A DNA stretch of 12,292 nucleotides from a virus. The notes under the pieces were generated by a model. The model was not told the origin of the DNA, did no database searches, and saw only the letters and a list, made by a program, of their open reading frames with translations. Location: UHGV virus genome UHGV-0198005; one strand, 5' to 3'. Shown here one piece after another: positions 1 through 12,292 of this stretch. The stretch's first letter is position 1. Each line of letters begins with the position of its first letter. A program made the translations under genes and the position numbers.

Positions 1-1242
1 ATGGCGAGAAAAACACACCCATTAACCACAGTGCAGATCAAAGCAGCCAGACCAGCGCAAAAGGAGTACACCCTGCAGGACGGCGGAGGGCTTTTTCTCC
101 TGGTCAAACCGTCTGGATCAAAACTCTGGAGATTTTCCTACTACCGACCATCGGACAAAAAAAGAATATTGCTGAGTTTTGGATCGCTTGAAGATGTTTC
201 CCTGGCTGATGCCAGAAAACGCCGTAGCGAGTACAGGACGTTAATCAGTGCCGGAACTGACCCGCAGGACCACGAGAGGCAAAAAAGAGAGACAGAGGCC
301 CGAAGACAAGGGAACACGTTCGAAAATGTGGCGGCGGCATGGTACCAGGTGAAAATCAGCCAGAATCTGGCCCCCAACACGATTAAAGACATCTGGCGTT
401 CGCTGGATAAATATGTATTCCCGTTCATCGGCAACACGCCAATAGATACCCTCACCGCCCGAAGGTTCGTTGAAGTGCTTACACCCATCAAGGAGCGCGG
501 CAACCTGGAAACACTCAAGCGGGTTTTACAGCGCGTTAATGAGGTAATGGATTACGCCGCCAACAGTGGGCTGATTGATGCCAATCCGGCTATGAATGTG
601 CGTAAGGCGTTTCCCTCACCTGTAAAAAAACATATGCCAACAATCCGCCCCGAACAGCTGCCGGAGCTTATGCAGGCTTTATCAGTATCGGCAACAGAAC
701 GGCAGACCAGATTACTGATTGAATGGCAGTTACTGACCGTAACCCGTCCCGCCGAAGCGTCATCAACGCGGTGGGATGAAATCAACCTGGACGCGAAGCA
801 ATGGACGATACCTGCCGGACGCATGAAGATGCGCAGGGATCACGTTATCCCGCTTTCCGGTCAGGCTATGGCGGTGCTGGAGGCCATGAAACCAATCAGC
901 CACCACCGCAATTACGTTTTCCCAAGTCTGAAAGACCCACAGCAGCCGATGAACAGCCAGACAGCTAACGCAGCATTGCGGCGTATGGGATTCGCTGGCG
1001 TGCTGGTGTCTCATGGATTACGCGCCATATTCAGCACAGCAGCGAACGAGGAAGGATTCGAGCCGGACGTAATAGAGGCGGCACTTGCCCACGTCGACAC
1101 CAACGAAGTTAGACGGGCATACAACCGGAGCAACTACATAGAAAAACGCATCGTGCTGATGCGCTGGTGGGGCGAATTTGTCGAGGCTGCGGCGACGGGC
1201 GTAACCCTCGCCAGTGGTAAAAGGGGTATCCGAGCCGTGTAG
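1..1242 (+). CDS. int: Site-specific tyrosine recombinase, P4-type integrase
   Basis: 413-aa ORF. N-terminus MARKTHPLT...GSKLWRFSYYRP and C-terminal VSHGLR...AHVD...RRAYNRSNY align by eye with recalled E. coli CP4-57 IntA / P4 Int, including the R..H..R..Y catalytic region. Position at island edge. Confidence 0.93.
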   Translation: MARKTHPLTTVQIKAARPAQKEYTLQDGGGLFLLVKPSGSKLWRFSYYRPSDKKRILLSFGSLEDVSLADARKRRSEYRTLISAGTDPQDHERQKRETEARRQGNTFENVAAAWYQVKISQNLAPNTIKDIWRSLDKYVFPFIGNTPIDTLTARRFVEVLTPIKERGNLETLKRVLQRVNEVMDYAANSGLIDANPAMNVRKAFPSPVKKHMPTIRPEQLPELMQALSVSATERQTRLLIEWQLLTVTRPAEASSTRWDEINLDAKQWTIPAGRMKMRRDHVIPLSGQAMAVLEAMKPISHHRNYVFPSLKDPQQPMNSQTANAALRRMGFAGVLVSHGLRAIFSTAANEEGFEPDVIEAALAHVDTNEVRRAYNRSNYIEKRIVLMRWWGEFVEAAATGVTLASGKRGIRAV

Positions 1243-1319
1243 CTGTACAGAAAACCAGTAAAAACTACGAAAACCATGTAAAACCGTCGTATAATTGCAT
1301 CAAATTTAACGACAAGGCC

Positions 1320-1571
1320 GTGAAACATGAAACCGTTAAGATGCAAAAAAATATCAGATGCAATTGCGACGGGCTGCAACTGGCCCTGATGGTTCAGCAT
1401 GAATTTTGGTCAACCTACGATCCGGAGGACAGAACGACGGCCCCATCAAAAAAACAGGTAGTAGATTTTCTGGTATCCCGTGGCGCTTCCAGAAATCTGG
1501 CGGTAAGTATTGATAAGGTCGTACGTCCGGCATCTATGAAGATCGGAGGCAGGCCCAAAAAATGGCGGTAA
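1320..1571 (+). CDS. Hypothetical small protein (83 aa), possibly a DNA-binding or excision-accessory protein, or a gene remnant
   Basis: ORF with AAGG 9 nt upstream of the ATG and a strong intrinsic terminator directly after the stop codon. No recognisable homology. Confidence 0.35.
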   Translation: MKHETVKMQKNIRCNCDGLQLALMVQHEFWSTYDPEDRTTAPSKKQVVDFLVSRGASRNLAVSIDKVVRPASMKIGGRPKKWR

Positions 1572-1581
1572 CAATCCTGGA

Positions 1582-1606
1582 AGCGGCAGAAATGCCGCTT
1601 TTTTTA
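1582..1606 (+). terminator. Rho-independent terminator (AGCGGCA-GAAA-TGCCGCT + T7)
   Basis: Perfect 7-bp stem, 4-nt loop and TTTTTTT run immediately after the 1320-1571 ORF stop. Confidence 0.6.
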
Positions 1607-1630
1607 TAATTCCATTTCAAATCATCAATA

Positions 1631-1725
1631 TAAAAACGGTGTATACCGTTTAAAAACGGTGGGAACTGTTTTTACCCATATCCGATGATTTACCGTATTT
1701 GTCACCGGAATACACCGGATTCACA
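1631..1725 (+). promoter_or_regulatory. Operator/promoter region upstream of alpA: palindrome AAACGGT-GTAT-ACCGTTT, direct repeat TAAAAACGGTG x2, direct repeat CACCGGA x2
   Basis: Repeats read directly in the sequence (1631-1661 and 1703-1719), in the intergenic region ahead of the alpA start. Confidence 0.35.
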
Positions 1726-1737
1726 AGGTAAATCACG

Positions 1738-1944
1738 ATGGAAGCAATCAGAAAAATTATCTTTCGCCAGGAAGTAAAAAAAATTATCCACATCAAGGCA
1801 GACAGCACGCTGCAAAGCATGATCAACGCCGGAGAATTTCCGCAGGGTTTTCGCGTTGGTTTACGCCGTCGCGGATGGTATGAGGATGATGTGTTGGCCT
1901 GGCAGAAAGAACGCGAACAGGAAGCACGCGGAACGGCTGCTTAA
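1738..1944 (+). CDS. alpA: AlpA-family (phage CP4-57-type) transcriptional regulator / excision activator
   Basis: 68-aa ORF. STLQSMINAGEFPQGFRVGLRRRGWYEDDVLAWQ matches the AlpA-family HTH pattern (..ST.Y.LI.AGEFP....G.R..GW.E.E...W). AAGG Shine-Dalgarno-like motif upstream. Confidence 0.8.
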   Translation: MEAIRKIIFRQEVKKIIHIKADSTLQSMINAGEFPQGFRVGLRRRGWYEDDVLAWQKEREQEARGTAA

Positions 1945-1970
1945 CGGGTATCACAGATATGACAAACACG

Positions 1971-2003
1971 AAAAAAGCGGCCCCGATATGGAGCCGCCTT
2001 TCT
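1971..2003. terminator. Bidirectional intrinsic terminator (GCGGC-N11-GCCGC), strongest for minus-strand transcripts (A6 on the plus strand = T6 on minus)
   Basis: Hairpin 1977-1997 flanked by AAAAAA upstream and CTTTCT downstream, located between convergent alpA (+) and the minus-strand operon ending at 2093. Confidence 0.5.
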
Positions 2004-2092
2004 GAACAATTAACCCGCTGCGCCTTATGTGTATATGATCCCAAACATAAGCACGGGGATGATAGCCGCTATCAGGCTGGTGGGCAATGCAA

Positions 2093-2281
2093 TCAGTCTG
2101 GTTCAGTTCGTTGCCATACCTGCAATGAGCGCTTTTCCCTGTATTCTTTAAGGAATTGCTCAAGGGCAAAAGCACATGGCGCGAATCTTTCTGATTCATG
2201 CTCTATCTTTCTGCGCCGTCTTTTCCGTGCCGGTGATAATGTTTTGGTCAATTCTTTATCGGTCATTGTGTTGTCCTGCAT
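2093..2281 (-). CDS. Hypothetical small basic protein (62 aa), second gene of the minus-strand regulator operon
   Basis: ORF lies 42 bp downstream of the RHH-like gene on the same strand and is followed by the terminator at ~1971-1997. Arginine-rich stretch SPARKRRRRK. No clear ribosome-binding site. Confidence 0.35.
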   Translation of the reverse strand: MQDNTMTDKELTKTLSPARKRRRRKIEHESERFAPCAFALEQFLKEYREKRSLQVWQRTEPD

Positions 2282-2323
2282 AGCAATGCGCCGTAATACC
2301 TTACACCACGGCGCTGATGGTGA

Positions 2324-2629
2324 TTACTCTGGTTCTTTGGTCTTGCGGCGCTGGAGTTCTTCACGTGCGACAGTGACGAGCTGCCCGATCTCCTCGGCGG
2401 CTTTGATTCCGAGTTTTTCCACCTGCGCCAGTGCATCGTGCGAAGAAATCAGGGGGTTTTCTCCGCTTCCTTCTGCCTGGCGGCGGGCGATTTCACCGCG
2501 CATGGCGGTTACTATGAATCCGGCGTTGCTTTCACCGTCCAGTTTTACGGATTCCATGCCTTCAATAACATCATGCGGGATCCGAGCTGTCAGTGATTGT
2601 GATTTTGCGTTTTTTGAACCTGTAGCCAT
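2324..2629 (-). CDS. Ribbon-helix-helix-like DNA-binding protein, candidate island repressor/regulator
   Basis: ATG at 2629 preceded by GAGAGGA; the ORF track's upstream TTG at 2644 is less likely. N-terminal SQSLTARIPHDVIEGMESVKLDG fits the RHH beta-strand/helix pattern (inference from motif, not searched). Divergent from the rightward operon across an operator-rich region. Confidence 0.6.
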   Translation of the reverse strand: MATGSKNAKSQSLTARIPHDVIEGMESVKLDGESNAGFIVTAMRGEIARRQAEGSGENPLISSHDALAQVEKLGIKAAEEIGQLVTVAREELQRRKTKEPE

Positions 2630-2644
2630 CTGTAATCCTCTCAA

Positions 2645-2825
2645 TGAAAGTGTAAGACAATATACACATAAAAAGTCTTACATAAAAGCATTGACATGTA
2701 AGCCACCTATAAATAAAGTTACTTACACCTTGTTAATGCAAGGTGCAGAAACGACGAAACCCCGCACTGTAGGAGCAGTAACGGGGCTTCTAACCACCAA
2801 CGATAGCAAGATTATCGAGGCAGCT
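2645..2825. promoter_or_regulatory. Divergent control region: two similar operators built from TGTAAG half-sites (O1 2651-2682, O2 2697-2728), sigma70-like promoter (TTGACA 2691-2696, 17 bp, TAAAGT 2714-2719) reading rightward, plus IR CACCTTG-N6-CAAGGTG
   Basis: Half-sites and promoter hexamers read directly in the sequence; the arrangement is classic for a repressor-controlled lytic-type operon. Confidence 0.5.
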
Positions 2826-3026
2826 ATGAGAAATTATACCATACACCCGCAAGGGCGGGACTCGTACAACCTGAATAAATACATCTGGCGTTTTATCGCC
2901 CTGAGCACGGCACAACCGCGCGTGATTACCATCGAGGCCACCAGCGAACAGGAAGCGCGTCAGCAATCTCCGGCTGGCTGCGTGATGGTATTTGCTGCCC
3001 GTATTCGTCAGGGGGTAGGCTTATGA
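2826..3026 (+). CDS. Hypothetical protein (66 aa), first gene of the rightward operon
   Basis: GAGG 5 nt upstream of the ATG at 2826; stop overlaps the next start (ATGA). It is the only protein-like part of the otherwise spurious 355-aa ORF 1959-3026. Confidence 0.45.
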   Translation: MRNYTIHPQGRDSYNLNKYIWRFIALSTAQPRVITIEATSEQEARQQSPAGCVMVFAARIRQGVGL

Positions 3027-3253
3027 GCCAGGAAATCACACTACAACAGGCAGCAGAACGCGCCCACCAAATCGAAGTTATTTGCGCACTGGCAGAGGAT
3101 TACCCTGGCATGATGACCGACAGCGAATCAGGGGCAATCATCGGCTTACTTAAACGCCTTAGCGGTGAGGTCTGCGTATTCCTGAGCGATGAACAGGAAA
3201 GAAGAACGCTTATTTCTAACGAAAAAAAATGCGGAGGGGTACATGTGCAATAA
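3023..3253 (+). CDS. Hypothetical protein (76 aa)
   Basis: ORF translationally coupled to the preceding ORF (ATGA overlap); helical, acidic composition. Confidence 0.55.
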   Translation: MSQEITLQQAAERAHQIEVICALAEDYPGMMTDSESGAIIGLLKRLSGEVCVFLSDEQERRTLISNEKKCGGVHVQ

Positions 3254-3464
3254 AACCACACCGGACGCAGCAGCCGCCGCGCTCACTACGCTGATGCACG
3301 CGCTTATCGATATTGAATGCACTGCAGAGCTTGCGCAGGGAGAAGAACAGAAAGACCGGACACAGTTCGCCCTGGAATGTATCCGATACATCGCAACACG
3401 GTCGCTGAATGACGCTAAAAATATTCTTGTTGCTGATTGTGAAAATGGGGGGGGTTATGCGTGA
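3243..3464 (+). CDS. Hypothetical protein (73 aa; start chosen at the ATG with a GGAGGGG ribosome-binding site)
   Basis: GGAGGGG 5 nt upstream of ATG 3243. The ORF track's longer version (3189) starts inside the previous gene. Confidence 0.5.
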   Translation: MCNKTTPDAAAAALTTLMHALIDIECTAELAQGEEQKDRTQFALECIRYIATRSLNDAKNILVADCENGGGYA

Positions 3465-3678
3465 TGATCGTTTTAATTCCCTGAAACAGGAATTTTCCGG
3501 CGTTCCTGATGATGCGGCTGATGCGCTTTCGTCAATGCCAGAACTTATTAGAGCGGCTTTTTTCTTACTTTCCACGAGAGAATATAAATCAACGGGGCTT
3601 GATGTACTGAATATCGCCGCCGATTATGCTGATTTCGTGACAGAGGTTATTTTAAGAAAAACGACGGACGGGGATTAA
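3457..3678 (+). CDS. Hypothetical protein (73 aa)
   Basis: ATG 3457 overlaps the previous stop (ATGCGTGA) and is preceded by a G-rich Shine-Dalgarno-like run. The ORF track's upstream start (3409) lies inside the previous gene. Confidence 0.5.
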   Translation: MRDDRFNSLKQEFSGVPDDAADALSSMPELIRAAFFLLSTREYKSTGLDVLNIAADYADFVTEVILRKTTDGD

Positions 3679-3679
3679 T

Positions 3680-3913
3680 ATGCGTGATATTTACCACGAA
3701 ACAATAGACCGCGCATTTCTTGCACTTTCTCACAGTGAAAACATGCTGGAAATATTGCGCATATGGCTTGAAACACTTGGCGACAATGAACGCGACAAAC
3801 AAAAATCAAGAATTGCCACGGCATTAATAACGCTTCTTGAGCCTGTAATAATGGAACTGCAAGAAATAGATCTATTGCACGATAGATATAAAGAACAGCA
3901 CACCGGAGAATAA
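3680..3913 (+). CDS. Hypothetical protein (77 aa)
   Basis: ORF with GGGGA upstream, tightly packed in the operon; helical composition. Confidence 0.55.
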   Translation: MRDIYHETIDRAFLALSHSENMLEILRIWLETLGDNERDKQKSRIATALITLLEPVIMELQEIDLLHDRYKEQHTGE

Positions 3914-3918
3914 AAATA

Positions 3919-4218
3919 ATGAAACTTAAATATTCTGGCTTAACTGCCAGTGGCAACACTCACCCTAAATTTACGCGCGGCGATATTTACCGCGACCAGT
4001 ACGGCGGCACGGTAATGATTAAGGGCGTGGCGGGACGGTGCGTAACTTACCGCCGTGAAGGTTACGAATATGATTGCGTGATGCCTGTTTATCAGTTCCG
4101 GCGTGATTTTTCTCTGGTACAGACCGCGCCGCATAACGTGCCCACCAGCAACGCCAGGGCACGGGCAAACATCCAGAAGCTGAAAACCATGATTAACGGA
4201 TTCAGGGGTAAAAAATGA
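3919..4218 (+). CDS. Hypothetical protein (99 aa)
   Basis: ORF with GGAG upstream; stop overlaps the primase start (ATGA). Confidence 0.6.
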   Translation: MKLKYSGLTASGNTHPKFTRGDIYRDQYGGTVMIKGVAGRCVTYRREGYEYDCVMPVYQFRRDFSLVQTAPHNVPTSNARARANIQKLKTMINGFRGKK

Positions 4219-5969
4219 AACTGGCACCGAACGTAAAACAGCAGTCACGCGGCATAAAACACAAAGGAACAGAAGTCATTATTTTTGCGGGTAGTGATGC
4301 CTGGGCACACGCGAAACAATGGCAGGAACATGATGCGCGTATGGCCGGAGATAATGAGCCTCCTGTGTGGCTTGGGGAGCAGCAGTTATCAGAACTGGAT
4401 AAGCTGCAAATTGTGCCGGAAGGCAGAAAATCCGTGCGCATATTCAGGGCCGGATATCTTGCGCCAGTAATGATAAAGGCGATTGGTCAGAAGCTGGCGG
4501 CGGCAGGCGTACAGGATGCAAATTTTTACCCTGATGGTATGCACGGTCAGAAGGTGGAGAACTGGCGCGAATATCTGGCCCGTGAGCGCCAGAATCTTTC
4601 TGATGGTCTGGTCATTGAGCTTCCGGTAAAGCAAAAGGCGCAACTTTCGCAGATGGCGGACAGTGAGCGCGCGCAGCTGCTTGCCGATCGCTTTGATGGC
4701 GTTTGCGTACATCCTGAAAGTGAAATCGTTCACGTATGGCGCGGCGGGGTATGGTGTCCGGTCAGCACAATGGAACTTAGCCGCGAAATGGTGGCGATCT
4801 ATTCAGAGCACAGGGCCACTTTCAGCAAGCGCGTAATCAATAACGCCGTGGAAGCGTTAAAAGTTATTGCCGAACCAATGGGCGAGCCGTCCGGCGATTT
4901 GCTGCCGTTCGCCAATGGTGCGCTTGACCTGAAAACGGGGGAATTTTCCCCGCACACGCCGGAGAACTGGATCACCACGCACAACGGCATTGAGTACACG
5001 CCACCAGCACCAGGGGAGAACATCCGCGATAACGCGCCAAACTTTCATAAATGGCTTGAGCACGCAGCCGGAAAAGACCCGCGCAAGATGATGCGTATAT
5101 GTGCCGCGCTGTACATGATTATGGCGAACCGGTACGACTGGCAGATGTTTATTGAGGCCACCGGAGACGGCGGGAGCGGTAAAAGTACATTCACACACAT
5201 AGCCAGCCTTCTGGCAGGGAAACAAAACACGGTAAGCGCTGAAATGACATCGCTTGATGATGCTGGTGGGCGTGCGCAGGTTGTCGGGAGTCGTCTTATC
5301 GTCCTGGCAGACCAGCCGAAATATACAGGCGAAGGAACGGGCATCAAGAAAATCACGGGCGGCGACCCCGTGGAAATTAACCCGAAATATGAAAAGCGTT
5401 TTACGGCGGTAATCAGGGCGGTGGTGCTGGCAACCAATAACAATCCGATGATATTCACCGAACGGGCCGGAGGTGTGGCACGTCGTCGGGTGATATTCCG
5501 GTTCGATAACATCGTAAGCGAGGCAGAAAAAGACAGGGAGCTACCGGAAAAGATCGCGGCTGAAATCCCTGTCATTATCCGCCGCTTGCTGGCGAACTTT
5601 GCCGACCCTGAAAAGGCACGGGCTTTACTCATTGAACAGCGTGACGGTGATGAAGCACTGGCAATAAAGCAACAGACGGATCCGGTTATTGAGTTTTGCC
5701 AGTTCCTGAATTTTCTGGAGGAAGCACGCGGCCTGATGATGGGCGGCGGTGGCGATTCAGTGAAGTACACGACCAGAAACAGCCTTTACCGCGTCTATCT
5801 GGCGTTTATGGCGTACGCAGGCAGGAGCAAACCGCTAAACGTAAATGACTTTGGCAAGGCTATGAAGCCAGCCGCGAAAGTTTACGGACATGAATATATT
5901 ACGCGGAAAGTTAAAGGAGTAACGCAGACTAACGCAATAACAACAGACGATTGCGACGCGTTTTTATAA
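4215..5969 (+). CDS. Replication initiator: primase/helicase with phage-plasmid primase P4-family (D5_N-like) region and P-loop NTPase domain
   Basis: 584-aa ORF. Walker A GDGGSGKST (EATGDGGSGKSTFTHIASLLAG) and a putative Walker B LIVLAD; upstream NGALDLKTGEFSPHTPENWIT resembles the D5_N/primase-C motif. Immediately followed by an iteron array. Confidence 0.85.
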   Translation: MKLAPNVKQQSRGIKHKGTEVIIFAGSDAWAHAKQWQEHDARMAGDNEPPVWLGEQQLSELDKLQIVPEGRKSVRIFRAGYLAPVMIKAIGQKLAAAGVQDANFYPDGMHGQKVENWREYLARERQNLSDGLVIELPVKQKAQLSQMADSERAQLLADRFDGVCVHPESEIVHVWRGGVWCPVSTMELSREMVAIYSEHRATFSKRVINNAVEALKVIAEPMGEPSGDLLPFANGALDLKTGEFSPHTPENWITTHNGIEYTPPAPGENIRDNAPNFHKWLEHAAGKDPRKMMRICAALYMIMANRYDWQMFIEATGDGGSGKSTFTHIASLLAGKQNTVSAEMTSLDDAGGRAQVVGSRLIVLADQPKYTGEGTGIKKITGGDPVEINPKYEKRFTAVIRAVVLATNNNPMIFTERAGGVARRRVIFRFDNIVSEAEKDRELPEKIAAEIPVIIRRLLANFADPEKARALLIEQRDGDEALAIKQQTDPVIEFCQFLNFLEEARGLMMGGGGDSVKYTTRNSLYRVYLAFMAYAGRSKPLNVNDFGKAMKPAAKVYGHEYITRKVKGVTQTNAITTDDCDAFL

Positions 5970-5982
5970 TTTGTTGCAATGG

Positions 5983-6208
5983 CTGTCTACCCTGTCTACC
6001 TGAGTAAAGAAAAATACATTTAATTCAGTGCATTAAGTTAGGTAGATAGCCTTTTTTTACTGTCTACCCACTATCTACCCTCTCTACCTGATTTTACCTG
6101 AATCAGACAGGGAGGTAGACACGGGGTAGATAGTGGATAAAAGCACTCTACCCCGCTGAAAGCCGCGCCATTACTGGCATGAGGGCCACTAAGGTAGATA
6201 GGTAGACA
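5983..6208. repeat. Iteron-type replication origin: at least 11 copies of an 8-9 bp motif (C)TGTCTACC / GGTAGACA(G) and variants in both orientations around an AT-rich core
   Basis: Copies read directly at 5983-5991, 5992-6000, 6041-6049, 6060-6068, 6071-6079, 6081-6088, 6114-6121, 6125-6133, 6146-6155, 6193-6200, 6201-6208; AT-rich stretch 6001-6040. Placement directly 3' of the primase gene matches P4/PICI ori organisation. Confidence 0.7.
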
Positions 6209-6256
6209 AGGGGAGGCACAACTCAAAACTTTTTAAACGAGGGGGTAAAAATAAAT

Positions 6257-6535
6257 ATGCACACTTCAGGGAAATTTAATAAATCACTCAAAAAACGCAG
6301 AGACAGAACAGAACCGAAATATCGCGCGTTAGACATGACAGAGCACGCTTTAAAGGTGGCAATCAGAACGATAGACCGACACGTAGGGGAAGGATACGCG
6401 AAGGAACATCCCGACCTGATAAGCGCATTCATGACCACAGCAGCGGCAAACTTTGCCACGCTGACAGAACGGGAGATTGCCGAAGCGGAACAGGTAACAA
6501 CCATCAACGTTAAAACCGGAGAGGTGGAATCATGA
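6257..6535 (+). CDS. Hypothetical protein (92 aa), co-transcribed with ssb
   Basis: GAGGGGG ribosome-binding site ~11 nt upstream; stop overlaps the ssb start (ATGA). Confidence 0.6.
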   Translation: MHTSGKFNKSLKKRRDRTEPKYRALDMTEHALKVAIRTIDRHVGEGYAKEHPDLISAFMTTAAANFATLTEREIAEAEQVTTINVKTGEVES

Positions 6536-6954
6536 CAGCACAGATAGCCGCTTACGGGCGGCTGGTGGACGACCCGCAGGTAAAACAGACCAGCAAGGGC
6601 ACACCGATGACGCTGGCGCGTATGGCGGTCCCCCTTCCGTGCAGCCAGGCAGATGACGGAACGGCGACGATGTGGTTATCCGTCCTGGCATTTGGCAGAC
6701 AGGCCGAAGCACTGGAAAGGCACCGCAAGGGTGAACTCCTGAGCGTGGCGGGTAACATGCAGATCAGCCAGTGGACTGGGCAGAACGGAGAAACGCGGCA
6801 GGGCTGGCAGGTTATCGCAGACAGTGTAATCAGTGCGCGAACGGCGCGACTGGGCGGCAAAAAAGGTCAACAGGGCCAGGCTACTGACGCGCTGAACAGG
6901 GCAAAACAACAGGCGGGGAATGATGATCCGTACGGGGATAACATACCGTTTTAA
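6532..6954 (+). CDS. ssb: Single-stranded DNA-binding protein (SSB) homolog
   Basis: 140-aa ORF with an OB-fold-like N-terminal region, a Gly/Gln-rich linker and an acidic C-terminal tip DDPYGDNIPF, matching the conserved SSB tail (D-D-D-I-P-F in E. coli SSB, recalled). Confidence 0.8.
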   Translation: MTAQIAAYGRLVDDPQVKQTSKGTPMTLARMAVPLPCSQADDGTATMWLSVLAFGRQAEALERHRKGELLSVAGNMQISQWTGQNGETRQGWQVIADSVISARTARLGGKKGQQGQATDALNRAKQQAGNDDPYGDNIPF

Positions 6955-6968
6955 GCGACGAGTGACAG

Positions 6969-6992
6969 AAGCCGGAGCAATCCGGCTTTTTT
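6969..6992 (+). terminator. Rho-independent terminator (AAGCCGGA-GCAA-TCCGGCTT + T6)
   Basis: 8-bp stem, tetraloop and T-run 15 bp after the ssb stop. Confidence 0.65.
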
Positions 6993-7166
6993 ACGGGTCC
7001 TCCTGGCGGGGTGGGCCTGAACACGGGGCGGGAGGCGCGGAAAAAAGCGCATTTTTGTGATTTTATCGTCATCATCATCATGAGCGTAATTTATTGTTTT
7101 TAATTGTTTTGATGCAAAAAAGATGATGGTTGTGGTTAATTTTCGTTCGACATCTTTGCAGGCAGA

Positions 7167-7208
7167 TAAAAAAGCCCGATAAGGTCAGAGGTGGCTTATC
7201 GGGCTTTT
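7167..7208. terminator. Terminator-like hairpin (AGCCCGATAAG-N11-CTTATCGGGCT) flanked by an A-run and a T-run
   Basis: Perfect 11-bp stem; A6 upstream and T4 downstream make it potentially bidirectional. No adjacent CDS explains it. Confidence 0.45.
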
Positions 7209-7285
7209 GCATATGAGGCTTTTTGGTGCACTGACACACATGATCGGGATAATCATTTCATAATTTGCAACGCAACTCAACATCA

Positions 7286-7334
7286 TTGCACAAAATGCAA
7301 TCATGATTATAATCAGAGCTGGATGAACATCCAG
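7286..7334 (+). promoter_or_regulatory. Sigma70-like promoter (TTGCAC, 16 bp, TATAAT) with perfect palindrome CTGGATG-AA-CATCCAG at the predicted start site; candidate regulated head-operon promoter
   Basis: -35 at 7286-7291, -10 at 7308-7313, palindrome at 7319-7334, ribosome-binding site AAAGAGGAA at 7353-7361 before ATG 7370. Confidence 0.5.
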
Positions 7335-7369
7335 TTATGATTTTTTAAGTCAAAGAGGAATTTCTTACT

Positions 7370-7576
7370 ATGGCTGAAGAGAAAAAAGGCGGTGTTTCGG
7401 TGTACATAAGCCCCGACATCGTGAAGGCGCTCAAGGAACGCCACCAGCAGAACGTAAAAGCAGGCATTGCGGCAGGACTTGATCCGCTGGCGATGGTTGA
7501 GCCGTCAACAGGCTGGCAGGTACGCTCCTATTTACGCGCGGCGCTGGGCATAAATCAGACTCATGGGGGTGAATAA
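7370..7576 (+). CDS. Hypothetical protein (68 aa), first gene of the head operon; possibly a small RHH-like regulator or scaffold/size-determination factor
   Basis: Strong ribosome-binding site; stop overlaps the capsid gene start (TAATG). VSVYISPDIVKALKERH resembles an RHH strand-helix pattern (weak inference). Confidence 0.55.
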   Translation: MAEEKKGGVSVYISPDIVKALKERHQQNVKAGIAAGLDPLAMVEPSTGWQVRSYLRAALGINQTHGGE

Positions 7577-8631
7577 TGGCAGTCAAAGCAATGGCACTTA
7601 ACACACACCAGCTTTTCGCGTACCTGAATCGCGAGGATATTGCGGAATTTAAATTTAGTCCGCTGTTTACCGCGCTGTTTTTCCCGAACGTGGCGACATT
7701 CAACACGCAAAACATCATGCTGGATACCCTGGACATTGAAGAAGTCACCATGTCGGCGTTTTGTTCGCCTATGGTGGGTAGCCAGGTTCAGCGCGATAAA
7801 GGGTACGAAACCAGCACGATTAAACCTGGCTACATGAAGCCAAAGCACGAAATCGATCCAACGAAAACCATCATGCGCATGGCTGGAGAAGATCCGGCAC
7901 AGCTTAACGACCCTACCTATCGCCGTATGCGCCTGATTACTGGCAATATGCGCCGCCAGATAAACGCCATAAAAGCGCGCGTGGAATGGCTGGCGGTAAA
8001 TGCGGTAACGACCGGAAAAAACATCATTGAGGGCGAAGGCATAGAGCGCTATGAAATCGACTGGAAGATACCGGAAAAAAACATCATAGAGCAGGCCGAC
8101 GGGAAAAAATGGTCAGAGCAGGACAAAGAAACCCACGATCCAATCTATGATATCGAACTATACGCCGATCAGGCTGGTTGCCCCGCAAACGTCATGATTA
8201 TGGGCGTTGAGGTATGGCGAACGTTACGCAGCTTTAAAAAATTCCGTGAGCTGTACGATCTTTCCCGTGGTTCAGAGTCCGCCGCAGAGCTGGCCTGTAA
8301 AAACCTGGGCGAAGTGGTGAGCTTTAAAGGCTATCTGGGCGATATTGCCCTTATCGTCTATTCCGGCAAATACACTGACAGCGACGGCACAGAAAAATAT
8401 TTCCTTGATCCTGATTTGCTGGTCCTGGGCAACACCAACAACAAAGGGCTGGTGGCCTATGGTGCGATTATGGATCAGGAAGCGGTAAGAACAGGCGCAA
8501 CGCAAAACATGTACTACCCGAAAAACTGGATTGAGGACGGCGATCCGGCGATTGAGTACGTGCAGACGCACAGCGCACCGCAGCCGGTTCCGGCAGATAT
8601 TCGCAAATTTGTTACCGTCAAAATTGCTTAA
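7576..8631 (+). CDS. Major capsid protein, lambda gpE-like (HK97 fold)
   Basis: 351-aa ORF aligning along its length with recalled lambda gpE: FKFSPLFTALFF / FKFDPLFLRLFF; PGYMKPKHEIDP / PGYVKPKHEVNP; EDPAQLNDPTYRRMR / EDPQNLADPAYRRRR; RGSESAAELACKNLGEVVSFKGYLGDIALIVYSGKY / RGSNSELETAVKDLGKAVSYKGMYGDVAIVVYSGQY; YYPKNW..GDPA...SAP. Confidence 0.92.
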   Translation: MAVKAMALNTHQLFAYLNREDIAEFKFSPLFTALFFPNVATFNTQNIMLDTLDIEEVTMSAFCSPMVGSQVQRDKGYETSTIKPGYMKPKHEIDPTKTIMRMAGEDPAQLNDPTYRRMRLITGNMRRQINAIKARVEWLAVNAVTTGKNIIEGEGIERYEIDWKIPEKNIIEQADGKKWSEQDKETHDPIYDIELYADQAGCPANVMIMGVEVWRTLRSFKKFRELYDLSRGSESAAELACKNLGEVVSFKGYLGDIALIVYSGKYTDSDGTEKYFLDPDLLVLGNTNNKGLVAYGAIMDQEAVRTGATQNMYYPKNWIEDGDPAIEYVQTHSAPQPVPADIRKFVTVKIA

Positions 8632-8642
8632 CGGGGGATTCT

Positions 8643-8978
8643 ATGGACACTCCATACATTGAGTTATTTGCAGGCAGTCAGCAGGTATCCACGACGCTGG
8701 TACATTTTGCCGCTGATGCTGGCGTTATTCAGGAATTTACCCCGCTGATGCTGGCGGACAATGGCGAGTTTAAGCCGTGGGATGGTCAGGAATCTGGCAA
8801 GGCTGTTTATCTGACTTCGTACCTCGTGGACACGTCAAAGCAGAAATCAGCACAGTGTTACAAGACGGGGATATTCAATATTGCCGCCGTTAACTGGCCT
8901 GAGAGCGTCGACACCGATGCGAAAAAATGCGCCGCCTTTGCGGGTTCTGGCGTATCCGTTCAGCCGCTGGCCCGATAA
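8643..8978 (+). CDS. Head decoration protein, lambda gpD-like
   Basis: 111-aa ORF with TPLML, WDG, YKTGIFN...WPE and KKCAAFAGSGVSV matching recalled lambda gpD (TPLML..WDG..YKSGTF..WPE..KKRTAFAGTAISIV); similar length (~110 aa). Confidence 0.85.
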   Translation: MDTPYIELFAGSQQVSTTLVHFAADAGVIQEFTPLMLADNGEFKPWDGQESGKAVYLTSYLVDTSKQKSAQCYKTGIFNIAAVNWPESVDTDAKKCAAFAGSGVSVQPLAR

Positions 8979-8990
8979 GCAGGGGGAACG

Positions 8991-9404
8991 ATGGCAACGA
9001 ATGAAAGCATCATGGCGCTACCGCTGGCGAGTAAATTTAAAGCCGAAGCGCGGGCAATGGCTGACAGAGGTTTATCAACCTACGAGGCCGTATATCAACT
9101 CAACAAACTGGAAGAGCAGGACAAGCCGCGCGCTGATGCGATTATGGCGCTTCATGAGCATAAAGACTATCAGCCGCTGTTGCGTGCAATGGCAAACGTG
9201 CCTTGTATCGATGTTGATACGGCTAAAAACATCCTGAACATGACCATAGAGCAGGAACGCCCGAAGGTTGCACCAGAGCTTACCGCAGCCTTTGAAAACT
9301 TTATGGACATGCACAGCCCACAAACCGTATCAGCTGGCATGGCATACGATGGCAGAAACCCAGGCGATGACGGCGACATCGATCGCATACTGAAAACCAT
9401 CTGA
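8991..9404 (+). CDS. Hypothetical protein (137 aa), last gene of the head operon; lambda gpFI-like position and size but no visible similarity
   Basis: ORF with GGGGGA ribosome-binding site, followed by a terminator and the cos site. Functional guess is positional only. Confidence 0.6.
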   Translation: MATNESIMALPLASKFKAEARAMADRGLSTYEAVYQLNKLEEQDKPRADAIMALHEHKDYQPLLRAMANVPCIDVDTAKNILNMTIEQERPKVAPELTAAFENFMDMHSPQTVSAGMAYDGRNPGDDGDIDRILKTI

Positions 9405-9409
9405 GACAA

Positions 9410-9431
9410 GGCCGGAGAAATCCGGCTTTTT
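9410..9431 (+). terminator. Rho-independent terminator (GCCGGA-GAAA-TCCGGC + T6) abutting cosQ
   Basis: Stem-loop plus T-run directly after the 8991-9404 stop. Confidence 0.65.
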
Positions 9432-9432
9432 T

Positions 9433-9609
9433 GCGGGTCCTTCCTGGAATTATGGCCCGTTACGGGGCGGCGACCTCGCGGTTTTTCGCTATTTATGAGC
9501 TTTTTCAGGGGGGTGGTGGTGGTTTTGTTGTTTGCTCTATCTTTATGAATGAAAAGGGAAAGATGCAAACAATACACCAACCTGAAGCAGTAATTAAGTT
9601 GGTGTATTA
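9433..9609 (+). other. Lambda-type cohesive end site cos1 (cosQ-cosN-cosB); cosN 12-nt overhang GGGCGGCGACCT at 9465-9476; cosB diverged from lambda
   Basis: TTACGGGGCGGCGACCTCGCGGTTTTTCGCTATTTATGA matches the recalled lambda cos junction (ACGGGGCGGCGACCTCGCGGGTTTTCGCTATTTATGAAAA) almost base for base, then diverges. Lies directly upstream of the Nu1-like gene as in lambda. Confidence 0.8.
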
Positions 9610-10152
9610 ATGAAATCGCACCTGATGAACAAAAAAAACATGGCGAAAAGCTGCCGTGTAAGTGCGACAGCGTTCGACAAGTGGGGAGTGACTCCCGTTG
9701 AACGTAAAGGCCGTGAGGCGTTTTACGATGTTGCCAGCGTGATAGACAATAGGGTTAACAATGCAATTAGCCAGCTTACAAACGACAAAGGCGATATTGA
9801 TGATGATGAACTCTTACGAGTCAGGATCAGATTACTGACAGCACAGGCGGAGGCGCAGGAACTTAAAAACGAGCGCGATCGCGGTGACGTGATTGATACT
9901 GAGTTTTGCCTGTACGCGCTTTCAAAGCTGGCGAGTCAGATTTCATCAATCATGGACAGCCTCCCGCTTACTATGCAAAGGAGCTTCCCACAGATTACCC
10001 CCGCCATGCTGGATAGGCTTAAAAGGGAAGTGGTTAAAGCCTGTAATGCCAGTGCCAGAGTTGCCGACAACCTCCCACAGATACTGGCTGATTACTTGAA
10101 AGAAACAACCGGAAACGTACCGGAAAAGTTGCTACAGAAGAAAGGCGAGTAA
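9610..10152 (+). CDS. Terminase small subunit homolog, lambda Nu1-like (candidate Rpp-type packaging-redirection protein); true start may be the ATG at 9625
   Basis: LTAQAEAQELKNERDRGDVIDTEFCLYALSKLASQISSIMDSLPLTMQRSFPQ aligns with recalled lambda Nu1 LTRAQADAQELKNARDSAEVVETAFCTFVLSRIAGEIASILDGLPLSVQRRFPE; N-terminus MNKKNMAKS.. parallels Nu1 MEVNKKQLADIF. No large-terminase gene follows. Confidence 0.85.
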   Translation: MKSHLMNKKNMAKSCRVSATAFDKWGVTPVERKGREAFYDVASVIDNRVNNAISQLTNDKGDIDDDELLRVRIRLLTAQAEAQELKNERDRGDVIDTEFCLYALSKLASQISSIMDSLPLTMQRSFPQITPAMLDRLKREVVKACNASARVADNLPQILADYLKETTGNVPEKLLQKKGE

Positions 10153-10159
10153 CAGACGC

Positions 10160-10375
10160 GCAATTATTGAACAAAACTGAGAAACGACATGAAAGCGTCA
10201 TAAATCGCCATTTTAGATGATTACCGTGTCGTTTCTTTTTATTGTGTATCTATTTAAAAACAAATAGTTATGTTCGAGAAGTACCGACATGCTTTTTCCA
10301 GAAAAATTTTCATAAACAGATAAAAACCGCGAGGTCGCCGCCCCGTAACGGGTCCATAATTCCAGGAAGGACCCG
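10160..10375 (-). other. Second lambda-type cos site (cos2) in inverted orientation; cosN at 10332-10343 on the minus strand, with lambda-like cosB elements (R-site-like GAAACGACA / TGTCGTTTC, TTTATGAAAATTTT)
   Basis: Reverse complement of 10322-10375 is CGGGTCCTTCCTGGAATTATGGACCCGTTACGGGGCGGCGACCTCGCGGTTTTT, identical to cos1 apart from one indel. Continuing on the minus strand, TTTATGAAAATTTTTCTGG, CATAACTATTTGTTTTTAAATAGA and AAAGAAACGACAC...TGTCGTTTCTC parallel recalled lambda cosB (R3/I1/R2/R1 region). Confidence 0.7.
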
Positions 10376-10408: not shown

Positions 10409-10582
10409 ATGACAGAAGCCGAAATACTGGGATTAATCCGCCGTGCTGGTGGAATCAGCCAGCAGACTGACGAACAGGCCACGCAGCCGGACAGCGTGAC
10501 AGCCGAAAATTATGCGCGTGTTGTTGCTGAGGTGATGCGCCGTGATGGTATCCAGCTTAATGATGTGGATATGCGTTCTTGA
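10409..10582 (+). CDS. Hypothetical small ORF (57 aa), weakly supported
   Basis: ATG-initiated ORF below the ORF-track size cutoff with only a weak GGTG upstream; acidic, helical composition. May be a remnant. Confidence 0.25.
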   Translation: MTEAEILGLIRRAGGISQQTDEQATQPDSVTAENYARVVAEVMRRDGIQLNDVDMRS

Positions 10583-10890: not shown

Positions 10891-11263
10891 CAAAGCGCAA
10901 AATTGCGCTGGCTGGTGGGCATGATGCCGATATGGTGATCCCCATAACGGAAATATCCACCAGCACGGCAACGGCAGAATAGCCACAACACAGAAAAACC
11001 ACGAATATGGGGTTTTTGTTATGGCATGGGCATGATGACCGCCCCTGCTCTGAATGGTGGAAATCACCACGCAGATCATCCACCAGCTTCGTTTTTATAA
11101 ATTAAACATCCGGGAAAATCCGACCCTGAATTGTGCATTTTTTCAGCAAATCATTTTAGTTATACGTTTGGTTATACGGTTTAAAAGTTGAATCATATAC
11201 ATTATTTTAAATCATGAAGTTACACGCTCAATTAAACTACTCTCGTGGACCAAAAATCCCAAG

Positions 11264-11360: not shown

Positions 11361-12292
11361 GTCCAGACTACACCCGCCTGAGTTGTGCTGCTTTCTTCAC
11401 GGGAGAAACGGCTGTCGATACCAAGCGTTAGCCCCGTCAATGTTTGCTCAAAGCCAGCGCCTGCATCAGTGGTCACGTTGTTGCGGCTGTTAATTGCCGA
11501 ACTCCACATCGCCGCCCTTTACGCTACCAAGACGCTCACGCACGGTGTCCAGTTCTGCATCAAATACCAGCGGTTGTGCTGCCGCCATATTCAGCACATC
11601 CGTGGTTGAAGGGGGCATTTGTGCGCGATTCTCTGCGAGACTCCAGCTATGGTTGCCATTATCCAGCAAGGTATATTCATACGTACTGATATCAACAACG
11701 CCTCCGGCATTGCCCAACGTAAATGCCGCATCACCGCGCCCGTTGTTACCAGTGTAAGGTTATCTCCTGCTGCCGGCCTGGCACCGGTGTCCGTCACGAA
11801 TATTTTGAAATCACCTGTTGCTTTAACCTCCAGTAGCCCTCCCTTTTCTATAACGGCAAAGACGGCAATCCCATCTTTTTCAACAATTAAGCGCCCGCCT
11901 TTAATCGTGGGATCATTCGCCGCGCCATAAACCTGTAGCACTCCATTATTGATCGTAGTCTGGTTTACCGCGCCACCCATTTGAACAATTTGATAACCAT
12001 CATTTAATACTGAGTATTCTGCGGTGCCATTTATTTCAATGTACTGATATCCCCCGTTAATTTCAGTATTACTACTTACACCAAATTCTTATATATGCTG
12101 TTCTCCGCCAGGATTGATTTTCGTATTATTGGCGGCCCTACAAACCAGCTGGATATCTTTTTCCAGGACAACACCATCAACTGTCTCACCATACTCAACA
12201 GTTGATGCCAATGCTATGGGCGAATATAACGCTGTAGCCACCAGAACAGATATTGCGGAACGACAAAGAGAAACAGAACCAGATTGGTGCAT
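11361..12292 (-). pseudogene. Decayed autotransporter-type adhesin gene remnant (signal peptide + passenger fragment + linker + last ~44 aa of the beta-barrel), with an in-frame stop and at least two frameshifts; may continue beyond the window edge
   Basis: Minus-strand translation from 12292 gives a signal-peptide-like N-terminus (MHQSGSVSLCRSAISVLVATALYSPIALA), an in-frame TAA at 12089-12091, passenger-like repeats (NNGVLQVYGAANDPTIKGG...), a frame change near 11740-11760 into ...GGVVDISTYEYTLLDNGNHSWSL...TVRERLG..., a stop at 11490, then a third frame ending ...AGVVWTF* (aromatic C-terminus typical of outer-membrane barrels) at ~11361. Confidence 0.45.

Follow-up and report, generated by a model that had tools for sequence, protein, structure and literature searches.

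The 12,292-nucleotide stretch of the virus genome UHGV-0198005 analyzed here (the window, at its full length) very probably contains, almost in its entirety, a Gram-negative phage-inducible chromosomal island (PICI) of the EcCI family, integrated at the 3' end of a tRNA-Pro gene (proL) between yejM and yejO/narP and dependent on a helper phage via a lambda-type cos. A preliminary description, based on the letters of positions 1-10,375, had proposed a PICI-type satellite relying on a cos-type lambdoid helper. This proposal is supported, in that the same island has been catalogued and its near relative EcCICFT073 is mobilized by lambda. Since this element is already on record as a PICI and belongs to a well-studied, experimentally dissected family, the island call is not new. 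The details reported below concern its boundaries, its two cos sites and the small terminase (TerS) gene between them.

Over its whole length, the window is 99.9% identical to Escherichia coli ATCC 25922 (NZ_CP009072.1 106836-119144), Nissle 1917 and their relatives. Table S1 of Fillol-Salom et al. 2018 (ISME J, PMC6092414) lists a PICI, EcCIATCC25922, at CP009072.1 106749-118031 (11.3 kb, yejM-luxR). Since the window maps to 106836-119144 of the same record, the element is, as judged from its sequence, EcCIATCC25922; the two share 99.9% identity, a location on the yejM side and the 11.3-kb size class. The catalogue entry gives only coordinates, an attachment (att) core and an accessory gene, 'rdgR', and our analysis puts the island ends at the repeat of the tRNA-Pro 3' end (11.47 kb) rather than at the TTTGTAGTTATACG repeat of the catalogue. 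The same table gives yejM as the site of several EcCIs. Relative to Nissle 1917, the sole difference is a deletion of 17 nt at about 10573-10576 (Nissle has CAACATACGGATCCGCG or an equivalent register). CFT073 itself was considered as the source of the window and rejected, because the proL site is empty in that strain.

The preliminary description had left the island ends unidentified and stopped at position 10375. In fact, attR lies further on within the window, whether the tRNA-Pro repeat or the published repeat is taken as the end (Table 1), and the comparison of empty sites and att repeats that had been suggested delimited a present/absent unit of 11,468 bp bounded by tRNA-Pro 3'-end repeats. 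The tRNA-Pro target was located through the Nissle 1917 locus (L001), in which yejM and tRNA-Pro flank the island on the left, and on the right there follow a pseudogene of the yejO autotransporter, narP and ccm. In L001, tRNA-Pro (proL) is found at 7707-7783 and int at 8001, so that attL and tRNA-Pro are 215-294 nt upstream of the window, at a distance of 217 nt for the tRNA target; attL is the tRNA 3' end, CTCTCGTGCCGACCAAA (L001 7769-7785). Searches for attR with the exact tRNA 3'-end repeat, and then approximately with up to 6 substitutions, gave no match; the site was found through empty-site homology instead, and its copy carries a 2-nt deletion. In the empty sites of K-12 and of the ST73 relatives CFT073, ABU 83972 and clone D i14 (flanks 99.5%), tRNA-Pro is directly followed by AAAATCCCAAG, which corresponds to window 11252 onward, and homology to K-12 resumes at window 11240. 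Thousands of empty sites are of the tRNA-Pro type, and none fits the alternative junction.

The left copy of the published att core is situated 61-86 nt upstream of the window (L001 7914-7939). Excision at this core would give a junction of the form TTTTAGTTATACGTTT(A/G)GTTATACGG. Because a synthetic excised junction on the published TTTTAGTTATACG core had no contiguous match in 5426 complete genomes, the published repeat is more likely to represent integrase arm sites. Two direct and two inverted AGTTATACG motifs are found beside int and two more near attR; these repeats and the published core are probably arm-type sites of Int, with the tRNA segment serving as the crossover core. Damaged tRNA fragments at attR have been described for PICIs (PMC10111431).

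Gene content was determined with six-frame open reading frames (ORFs) and family scans (Pfam, PHROG and the NCBI NF/TIGR families) of the window. The core genes are co-oriented on the plus strand, with the int-alpA-pri-rep-ori backbone of Gram-negative PICIs, and at 11.47 kb, with defined att repeats and precise empty sites, the element falls within their size range of about 8-15 kb. The P4-family integrase of the preliminary description was confirmed by its Pfam domains and a full-length match to NF007246, and the primase-helicase with an iteron origin by the D5_N, DUF5906 and Pox_D5 domains and by clustered iterons. All 11 copies of TCTACC in the window are within 5986-6206, directly 3' of the primase gene (expected, 2.7), and a count of 11 was reached in 0 of 200 shuffles. 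The equivalent pri-ori module of EcCICFT073 is functional (PMC6092414). AlpA was also recovered, as an AlpA-like protein: PHROG assigns it to 'excisionase and transcriptional regulator' (5.5e-7), and Fig. S9 of PMC6092414 includes its product under the name EcCIATCC25922 AlpA.

Genes for autonomous particles are lacking. No large terminase (TerL), portal, protease, tail or lysis gene was found in the window among the six-frame ORFs scanned with Pfam and PHROG, and no TerL, portal, protease or tail gene is present in the 8 kb on either side in Nissle 1917. The absences reported from the sequence alone were therefore real, and the adjoining TerL, portal and tail genes that had been named as grounds for abandoning the island reading are not there; the neighbours are yejM/tRNA-Pro and yejO/narP/ccm. 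The earlier inventory of structural genes was nevertheless incomplete, since homologues of the lambda major capsid protein gpE and the decoration protein gpD had been overlooked, and the stated absence of a scaffold gene is doubtful. A 137-aa protein matches phrog_53 (head maturation protease) at positions 494-567 of 583, the Nu3-equivalent C-terminal end (2.7e-9); its BLASTP match to lambda gpC 349-437 is below significance (E 0.11), and no relative was found in the PDB by sequence. A capsid homologue is carried by 21 of the 29 reference Gram-negative PICIs (PMC10111431).

The helper-type packaging sequences of such islands are represented by two cos sites, each with an exact lambda cosN, cosQ and cosB, and by a Nu1-family terS. 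The cosN copies (GGGCGGCGACCT) are at 9465-9476 (+) and 10332-10343 (-), within an inverted repeat of ~72 nt (9434-9505 / 10303-10375) that includes the cosQ side, and the two sites face each other across terS. The lambda-type cos of the preliminary description was thus correct as to cosN, but there are two sites in inverted orientation, the second of which had been missed. In shuffles of the sister locus EcCICFT073, no exact cosN match arose.

The two cosB regions differ from each other. The left cos resembles phages through cosQ, cosN and about +30 only, with no phage match beyond. Its cosB carries a TTGTTGTTT motif like that at the R3 position of phage N15 (GGTTGTTGTTT in N15, TTGTTGTTTG in the left cos), and its palindrome ends 1 nt 5' of the terS ATG. 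The right cosB shows three R-like sites at the spacing and in the orientation of lambda; from cosQ to about +105, the right cos is 83.6% identical to the cos of the lambdoid phage PhiR5_1 and 74% identical to that of lambda. The inverted cos was compared among islands at window 10153-10375 (minus strand), L005 11110-11355 and L008 6640-6885. Its R sequence varies by island: TGTCG(G/T)T in the window, CAGATCC in an O157:H7 island and ATGTCCGGTT in EcCICFT073, whose cos2 shares 93.3% identity through cosB with the cos of PhiR12 phages. In the published papers on EcCICFT073, a phage cosB was not identifiable by comparison with lambda, phi80 and phi4. For this reason, the phage-type nature of cos2 and its variability, which would track the helper, may be undescribed.

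The gene between the two sites, called Nu1-like in the preliminary description, indeed encodes a TerS of the lambda family, scoring 83 bits against Phage_Nu1 (PF07471; cut-off 30). Over the full length, including the C-terminal region, its identity is 46% with N15 gp1 and 35% with lambda Nu1. The N-terminal DNA-binding region is short and of the N15 type, and the alignment extends through the part that binds TerL in lambda. In EcCICFT073, the same position is occupied by rppA, and TerS showed no similarity to RppA in BLASTP (E 1.4). Rpp-type EcCIs have an Rpp of 139-154 aa downstream of cos1 (Fillol-Salom 2019), where a 180-aa Nu1-family protein is encoded here. An Rpp identity was rejected for both TerS and the 137-aa protein: neither has a relative by sequence among solved structures, no Rpp chain was matched there, and TerS is unlike RppA. 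Some EcCIs have been reported to carry terS instead of Rpp (PMC6092414).

At a query coverage of at least 80%, the TerS cassette was found in 595 of 5426 complete genomes. Among complete E. coli genomes, O157:H7 included, about 11% carry it. An O157:H7 island with a different att site and replication gene has kept terS and the left cosB (cassette 97% identical at the nucleotide level); its right cosB is entirely different, with CAGATCC R-sites. The island of O157:H7 Balcarce_14.2 (L008, 3132784-3145465), located at roxA(ycfD)-phoQ, carries the same TerS cassette together with the capsid module; there, a RepA-family helicase replaces the P4-type Pri-Rep, and a PerC gene is added. This sibling island shows that integration, replication and packaging cassettes shuffle as modules among EcCIs.

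EcCICFT073 (NC_004431.1 1377749-1389210), the prototype PICI of E. coli (Fillol-Salom 2018 and 2019; Murialdo and Feiss 2022), shares the layout of the window island: int, alpA, small genes, DUF4222, pri-rep, ori, ssb, the capsid and decoration homologues and the 137-aa gene, after which come cos, a specificity gene, a cos in inverted orientation and an ORF of 93 aa. Identity amounts to 582 of 584 residues (99%) for Pri-Rep, 97% for the capsid homologue (c1499) and 93% for the 137-aa protein, and three small proteins (WP_000076671.1, WP_001372127.1 and WP_001204077.1) are identical RefSeq entries. EcCICFT073 also has two exact inverted lambda cosN flanking the specificity gene, the published cos1 and cos2, and both of these sites function in packaging (PMC6092414). 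The two islands differ, however, in int (24% identical) and AlpA (28%), in integration site (ycfD-phoQ versus tRNA-Pro), in perC, which is absent from the window island, and in both cosB regions; the specificity gene of EcCICFT073 encodes the 144-aa RppA, whereas that of the window encodes the 180-aa Nu1/N15-like TerS.

Helper-induced excision, replication, packaging and transfer, as well as interference, have been shown for the sister island EcCICFT073 only (PMC6092414, PMC6739421). Its induction depends on alpA, and it is transferred by lambda, phi80 and the 21-like prophage 4 of CFT073 (PMC6092414). Deletion of cos1 lowers transfer, deletion of cos2 raises it and the double deletion abolishes it; helper TerS is required (PMC6092414). 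RppA binds helper TerS and redirects it to the cosB of cos1, so that RppA and the cos1 cosB set packaging (PMC6739421; reviewed in PMC9026076).

In the window, the left cosB is directly upstream of terS and co-oriented with it, an arrangement also found in lambda, in N15 and for cos1 and rppA. We infer that the island TerS would bind the left cosB and recruit helper TerL via its Nu1-like C-terminal part, replacing helper TerS. Such a route for cos PICIs, by replacement of TerS and not by redirection through Rpp, may be undescribed. The inverted right cos could be used by the helper's own TerS as a secondary, helper-specific entry point; a helper-usable copy of a phage cos would agree with the published residual transfer through cos2 without cos1. 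We therefore put forward, tentatively and as a proposal somewhat short of probable, that the packaging region of EcCIs is a swappable two-cos cassette, in which cos1 has a private cosB read by either Rpp or an N15-like TerS, and the inverted cos2 is a copy of a lambdoid phage cos with the R3-I1-R2-R1 arrangement, its R sequences tracking helper lineages.

The roles of the two sites could also be reversed, with the island TerS acting at the right cos through cognate TGTCG(G/T)T sites at 10181-10292 and the left cos being helper-independent or vestigial, or TerS could mainly poison the helper terminase. The right cos does have R sites that are three in number and well spaced, as in a genuine phage cosB; the TerS of the island is a true member of the Nu1 family; and the Rpp of the sister island serves in interference as well as in packaging (PMC6739421). 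We consider these alternatives unlikely nevertheless. The right cosB is wholly different (TGTCGNT here, CAGATCC in O157:H7) in islands that share 97% nucleotide identity in TerS, whereas the left cosB is conserved with TerS; the right cosB resembles that of a phage cos whose TerS is only 41% identical to the island TerS; and in lambda, in N15 and for cos1 and rppA of EcCICFT073, the cosB is as a rule close to the gene and in the same orientation.

Several observations weigh against a mobile, helper-packaged island with its own TerS paired to the left cos. The assignment of TerS to the left cos relies on the position of the gene, on its conservation together with the site and on a short motif that N15 has in common. 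In their native strains, two TerS-encoding EcCIs (IHE3034 and 18098) yielded 0-110 transductants/ml, a poor transfer (PMC6092414), and TerS-type islands may need further helpers or be less mobile. The tRNA fragment at attR has lost 2 nt, the 17-nt deletion truncates a conserved 93-aa ORF 3' of the right cos to 57 aa, and the Pfam match of the alpA-like gene is below the cut-off. As to the capsid and decoration homologues, deletion of c1499 or c1500 in EcCICFT073 had no phenotype (PMC6092414).

Some of these features would also be expected of an immobile, decayed lambdoid prophage, in which the capsid, decoration, Nu1 and cos sequences were leftovers of a head-gene cluster. Homologues of lambda E, D and Nu1 are present together with lambda cos sequences, a degenerate third cos relic is found at 6971-7045, and both attR and a small ORF are damaged. 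The gene order argues otherwise, being E-D-x-cos-Nu1 in the island and Nu1-A-W-B-C-D-E in lambda. Neither the island nor its flanks contain lysis, tail, portal, TerL, repressor or late-regulator genes, whereas the P4-type int, alpA, pri-rep and iteron ori make up the defining layout of Gram-negative PICIs. In addition, the module is 97-99% identical to that of the mobile EcCICFT073, and the compact layout recurs at different att sites, with the TerS cassette present in 595/5426 genomes, as expected of a maintained element and not of random decay. A prophage remnant is thus very improbable. Least credible of all is a P4-like satellite depending on a P2-type helper, as would be suggested by the P4-family integrase, the AlpA/Vis-like regulator, the P4-family primase C-terminal domain and the Icd-like gene: as the preliminary description had already argued from the 12-nt cosN, the cosN matches that of lambda exactly and is accompanied by lambda-like cosQ and cosB, no ORF matches the Sid, Psu or Delta families in Pfam or PHROG (the P2 cos sequence was not itself searched), the head homologues are of the lambda gpE/gpD type, and the sister island is mobilized by lambda, phi80 and a 21-like prophage.

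For an EcCI-family island, the life cycle would, by analogy with EcCICFT073, begin when a lambdoid helper phage switches on alpA. AlpA and Int would excise the 11.47-kb element, and Pri-Rep would replicate it from the iteron origin 3' of its own gene. The lambda-type terminase of the helper would then cut concatemers at the 12-nt lambda cosN, with the island TerS predicted to stand in for helper TerS at the left cos and to engage helper TerL, and the DNA would be packaged into heads and tails made by the helper, probably as multimers of about four units. Four units amount to 45,872 bp (94.6% of the length of lambda), which fits the phage-sized packaged DNA reported for EcCICFT073 (PMC6092414, PMC10111431). 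Production of small capsids is not known for E. coli islands (PMC6092414).

The features and their positions are collected in Table 1.

Table 1. Features of the window, with positions, strands and supporting evidence
Feature	Position	Strand	Evidence or details
int, P4-type tyrosine integrase, 413 aa	1..1242	+	Pfam Arm-DNA-bind_3, Phage_int_M, Phage_integrase; NF007246 full length, 552 bits
alpA-like helix-turn-helix regulator/excisionase, 68 aa	1738..1944	+	Pfam Phage_AlpA E 3.5e-3; phrog_66 5.5e-7, phrog_2790 3e-6
YlcI/YnfO-family gene	2324..2644	-	NF041551, 72 bits; phrog_6522
Icd-like host cell-division inhibitor gene, 66 aa, intact	2826..3026	+	NF033153, 69.9 bits; RefSeq annotation
Small-gene run ending in DUF4222	3023..4218	+	DUF4222 (3919-4218) 2e-23
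pri-rep, D5_N / P4-family primase C-terminal / helicase protein, 584 aa	4215..5969	+	Pfam D5_N, DUF5906, Pox_D5; TIGR01613
ori, cluster of about 11 iterons CT(G/A)TCTACC, both orientations	5983..6213	.	TCTACC count
ssb	6532..6954	+	Pfam SSB 5e-15
Terminator hairpin and degenerate third cos relic, directly 3' of ssb	6971..7045	+	cosQ core kept, cosN mutated to GGGCGGGAGGCG
Lambda gpE-like major capsid homologue (c1499 equivalent)	7576..8631	+	Phage_cap_E 3.4e-52; 44% identical to lambda gpE
Lambda gpD-like head decoration homologue (c1500 equivalent)	8643..8978	+	Pfam HDPD 5.7e-17; 36% identical to gpD
137-aa protein, possibly Nu3/gpC C-terminus-related, scaffold-like	8991..9404	+	phrog_1999 4e-65; phrog_53
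Left cos (cos1 equivalent)	9434..9609	+	cosQ side 9434-9464, cosN 9465-9476, island-specific cosB
Left cosB element GGTGGTGGTGG	9512-9522	+	
Left cosB element TTGTTGTTTG	9525-9534	+	+61
Left cosB palindrome AATACACCAAC / GTTGGTGTATT	9571-9581 / 9598-9608	+	
terS, Nu1-family small terminase, 180 aa, N15-like DNA-binding end	9610..10152	+	Phage_Nu1 2.3e-23; phrog_57 3e-53
Right cos (cos2 equivalent), inverted	10153..10375	-	cosN 10343-10332, cosQ side 10375-10344, phage-type cosB
Right cosB R3-like GCATGTCGGTAC	10292-10281	-	+52
Right cosB I1-like AT tract CATAACTATTTGTTTTT		-	
Right cosB inverted R2-like AAACGACAC	10234-10226	-	+110
Right cosB R1-like CATGTCGTTTC	10191-10181	-	+153
Small ORF	10409..10582	+	93 aa in Nissle 1917, 57 aa in window
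Right copy of published att core TTTTAGTTATACGTTTGGTTATACGG	11154..11179	+	25/26 direct repeat; Table S1 of PMC6092414
attR, damaged tRNA-Pro 3'-end copy CTCTCGTG--GACCAAA	11240..11254	+	Empty-site comparison (CFT073 empty site, Nissle attL and window aligned)

Features in common with phages N15 and lambda are the related TerS, a cosN of exactly the lambda sequence and, in the left cosB, a GTTGTTGTTT motif roughly where N15 has R3; the right cosB has the R3-I1-R2-R1 arrangement of lambda. The island differs from both in having no partner TerL, in the longer and divergent C-terminal tail of TerS and in the two cos sites facing each other across a gene, which are not seen in those phages. Capsid-forming PICIs (cf-PICIs) of the EcCIEDL933 type (Alqurainy et al., bioRxiv 10.1101/2022.09.08.507074) have the same family of int-alpA-rep backbone, a capsid protein and TerS, but they encode their own portal, protease, head-tail connectors, HNH protein and TerL and form small capsids. 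Membership of this class was rejected: portal, protease, connector, TerL and HNH domains were found in no ORF of the window. As in pac-type Staphylococcus aureus pathogenicity islands (SaPIs), a satellite TerS would pair with the TerL of the helper; among cos-type SaPIs, SaPIbov5 has a capsid homologue (Ccm) and SaPIbov4 two putative cos sites. SaPIs belong to other phyla, however, their sequences are unrelated, and packaging here is via cos as opposed to headful.

The cos relic shares a direct repeat of 31 nt (94% identical) with 9411-9441, the hairpin and cosQ core of the left cos. Direct cos-like repeats thus bracket the module of capsid, decoration and 137-aa genes, a hint that it was acquired by recombination at cos. 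Hairpin-plus-T-run sequences precede both the left cos and the relic; in a scan of the window for promoters and terminators, the counts did not exceed those expected from shuffles.

Among the remaining genes, arrest of host division during induction is one possibility for the role of the Icd-like gene in a PICI. A second Icd-like segment (window 1959-2438) is annotated as a truncated pseudogene overlapping the antisense YlcI/YnfO gene. Ten small ORFs had no match in Pfam, PADLOC scans of the small and accessory ORFs for defence genes gave no match, and no tRNA gene was found inside the window. Beyond attR, window 11380-12292 (minus strand) encodes the N-terminal part of the yejO autotransporter and belongs to the chromosomal backbone outside the island. 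The yejO pseudogene here, in Nissle 1917 and in CFT073 has an internal deletion relative to K-12, with K-12 L002 3506-4511 missing at window 11821.

For specialists, the details of interest are the exchange of a TerS cassette for Rpp, the phage-type and island-variable cosB of cos2 and the reassignment of the att core; the comparison suggests corrections to published details on the position of the att core and on the phage-type cosB in cos2. The island resides in strains that are in wide use, Nissle 1917 as a probiotic and ATCC 25922 as a reference, and its mobilization by lambdoid helpers would be relevant to the biosafety of engineered derivatives. It represents an uncharacterized TerS-type branch of E. 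coli PICIs, for which the predicted packaging logic is the island's own TerS combined with the TerL of the helper.

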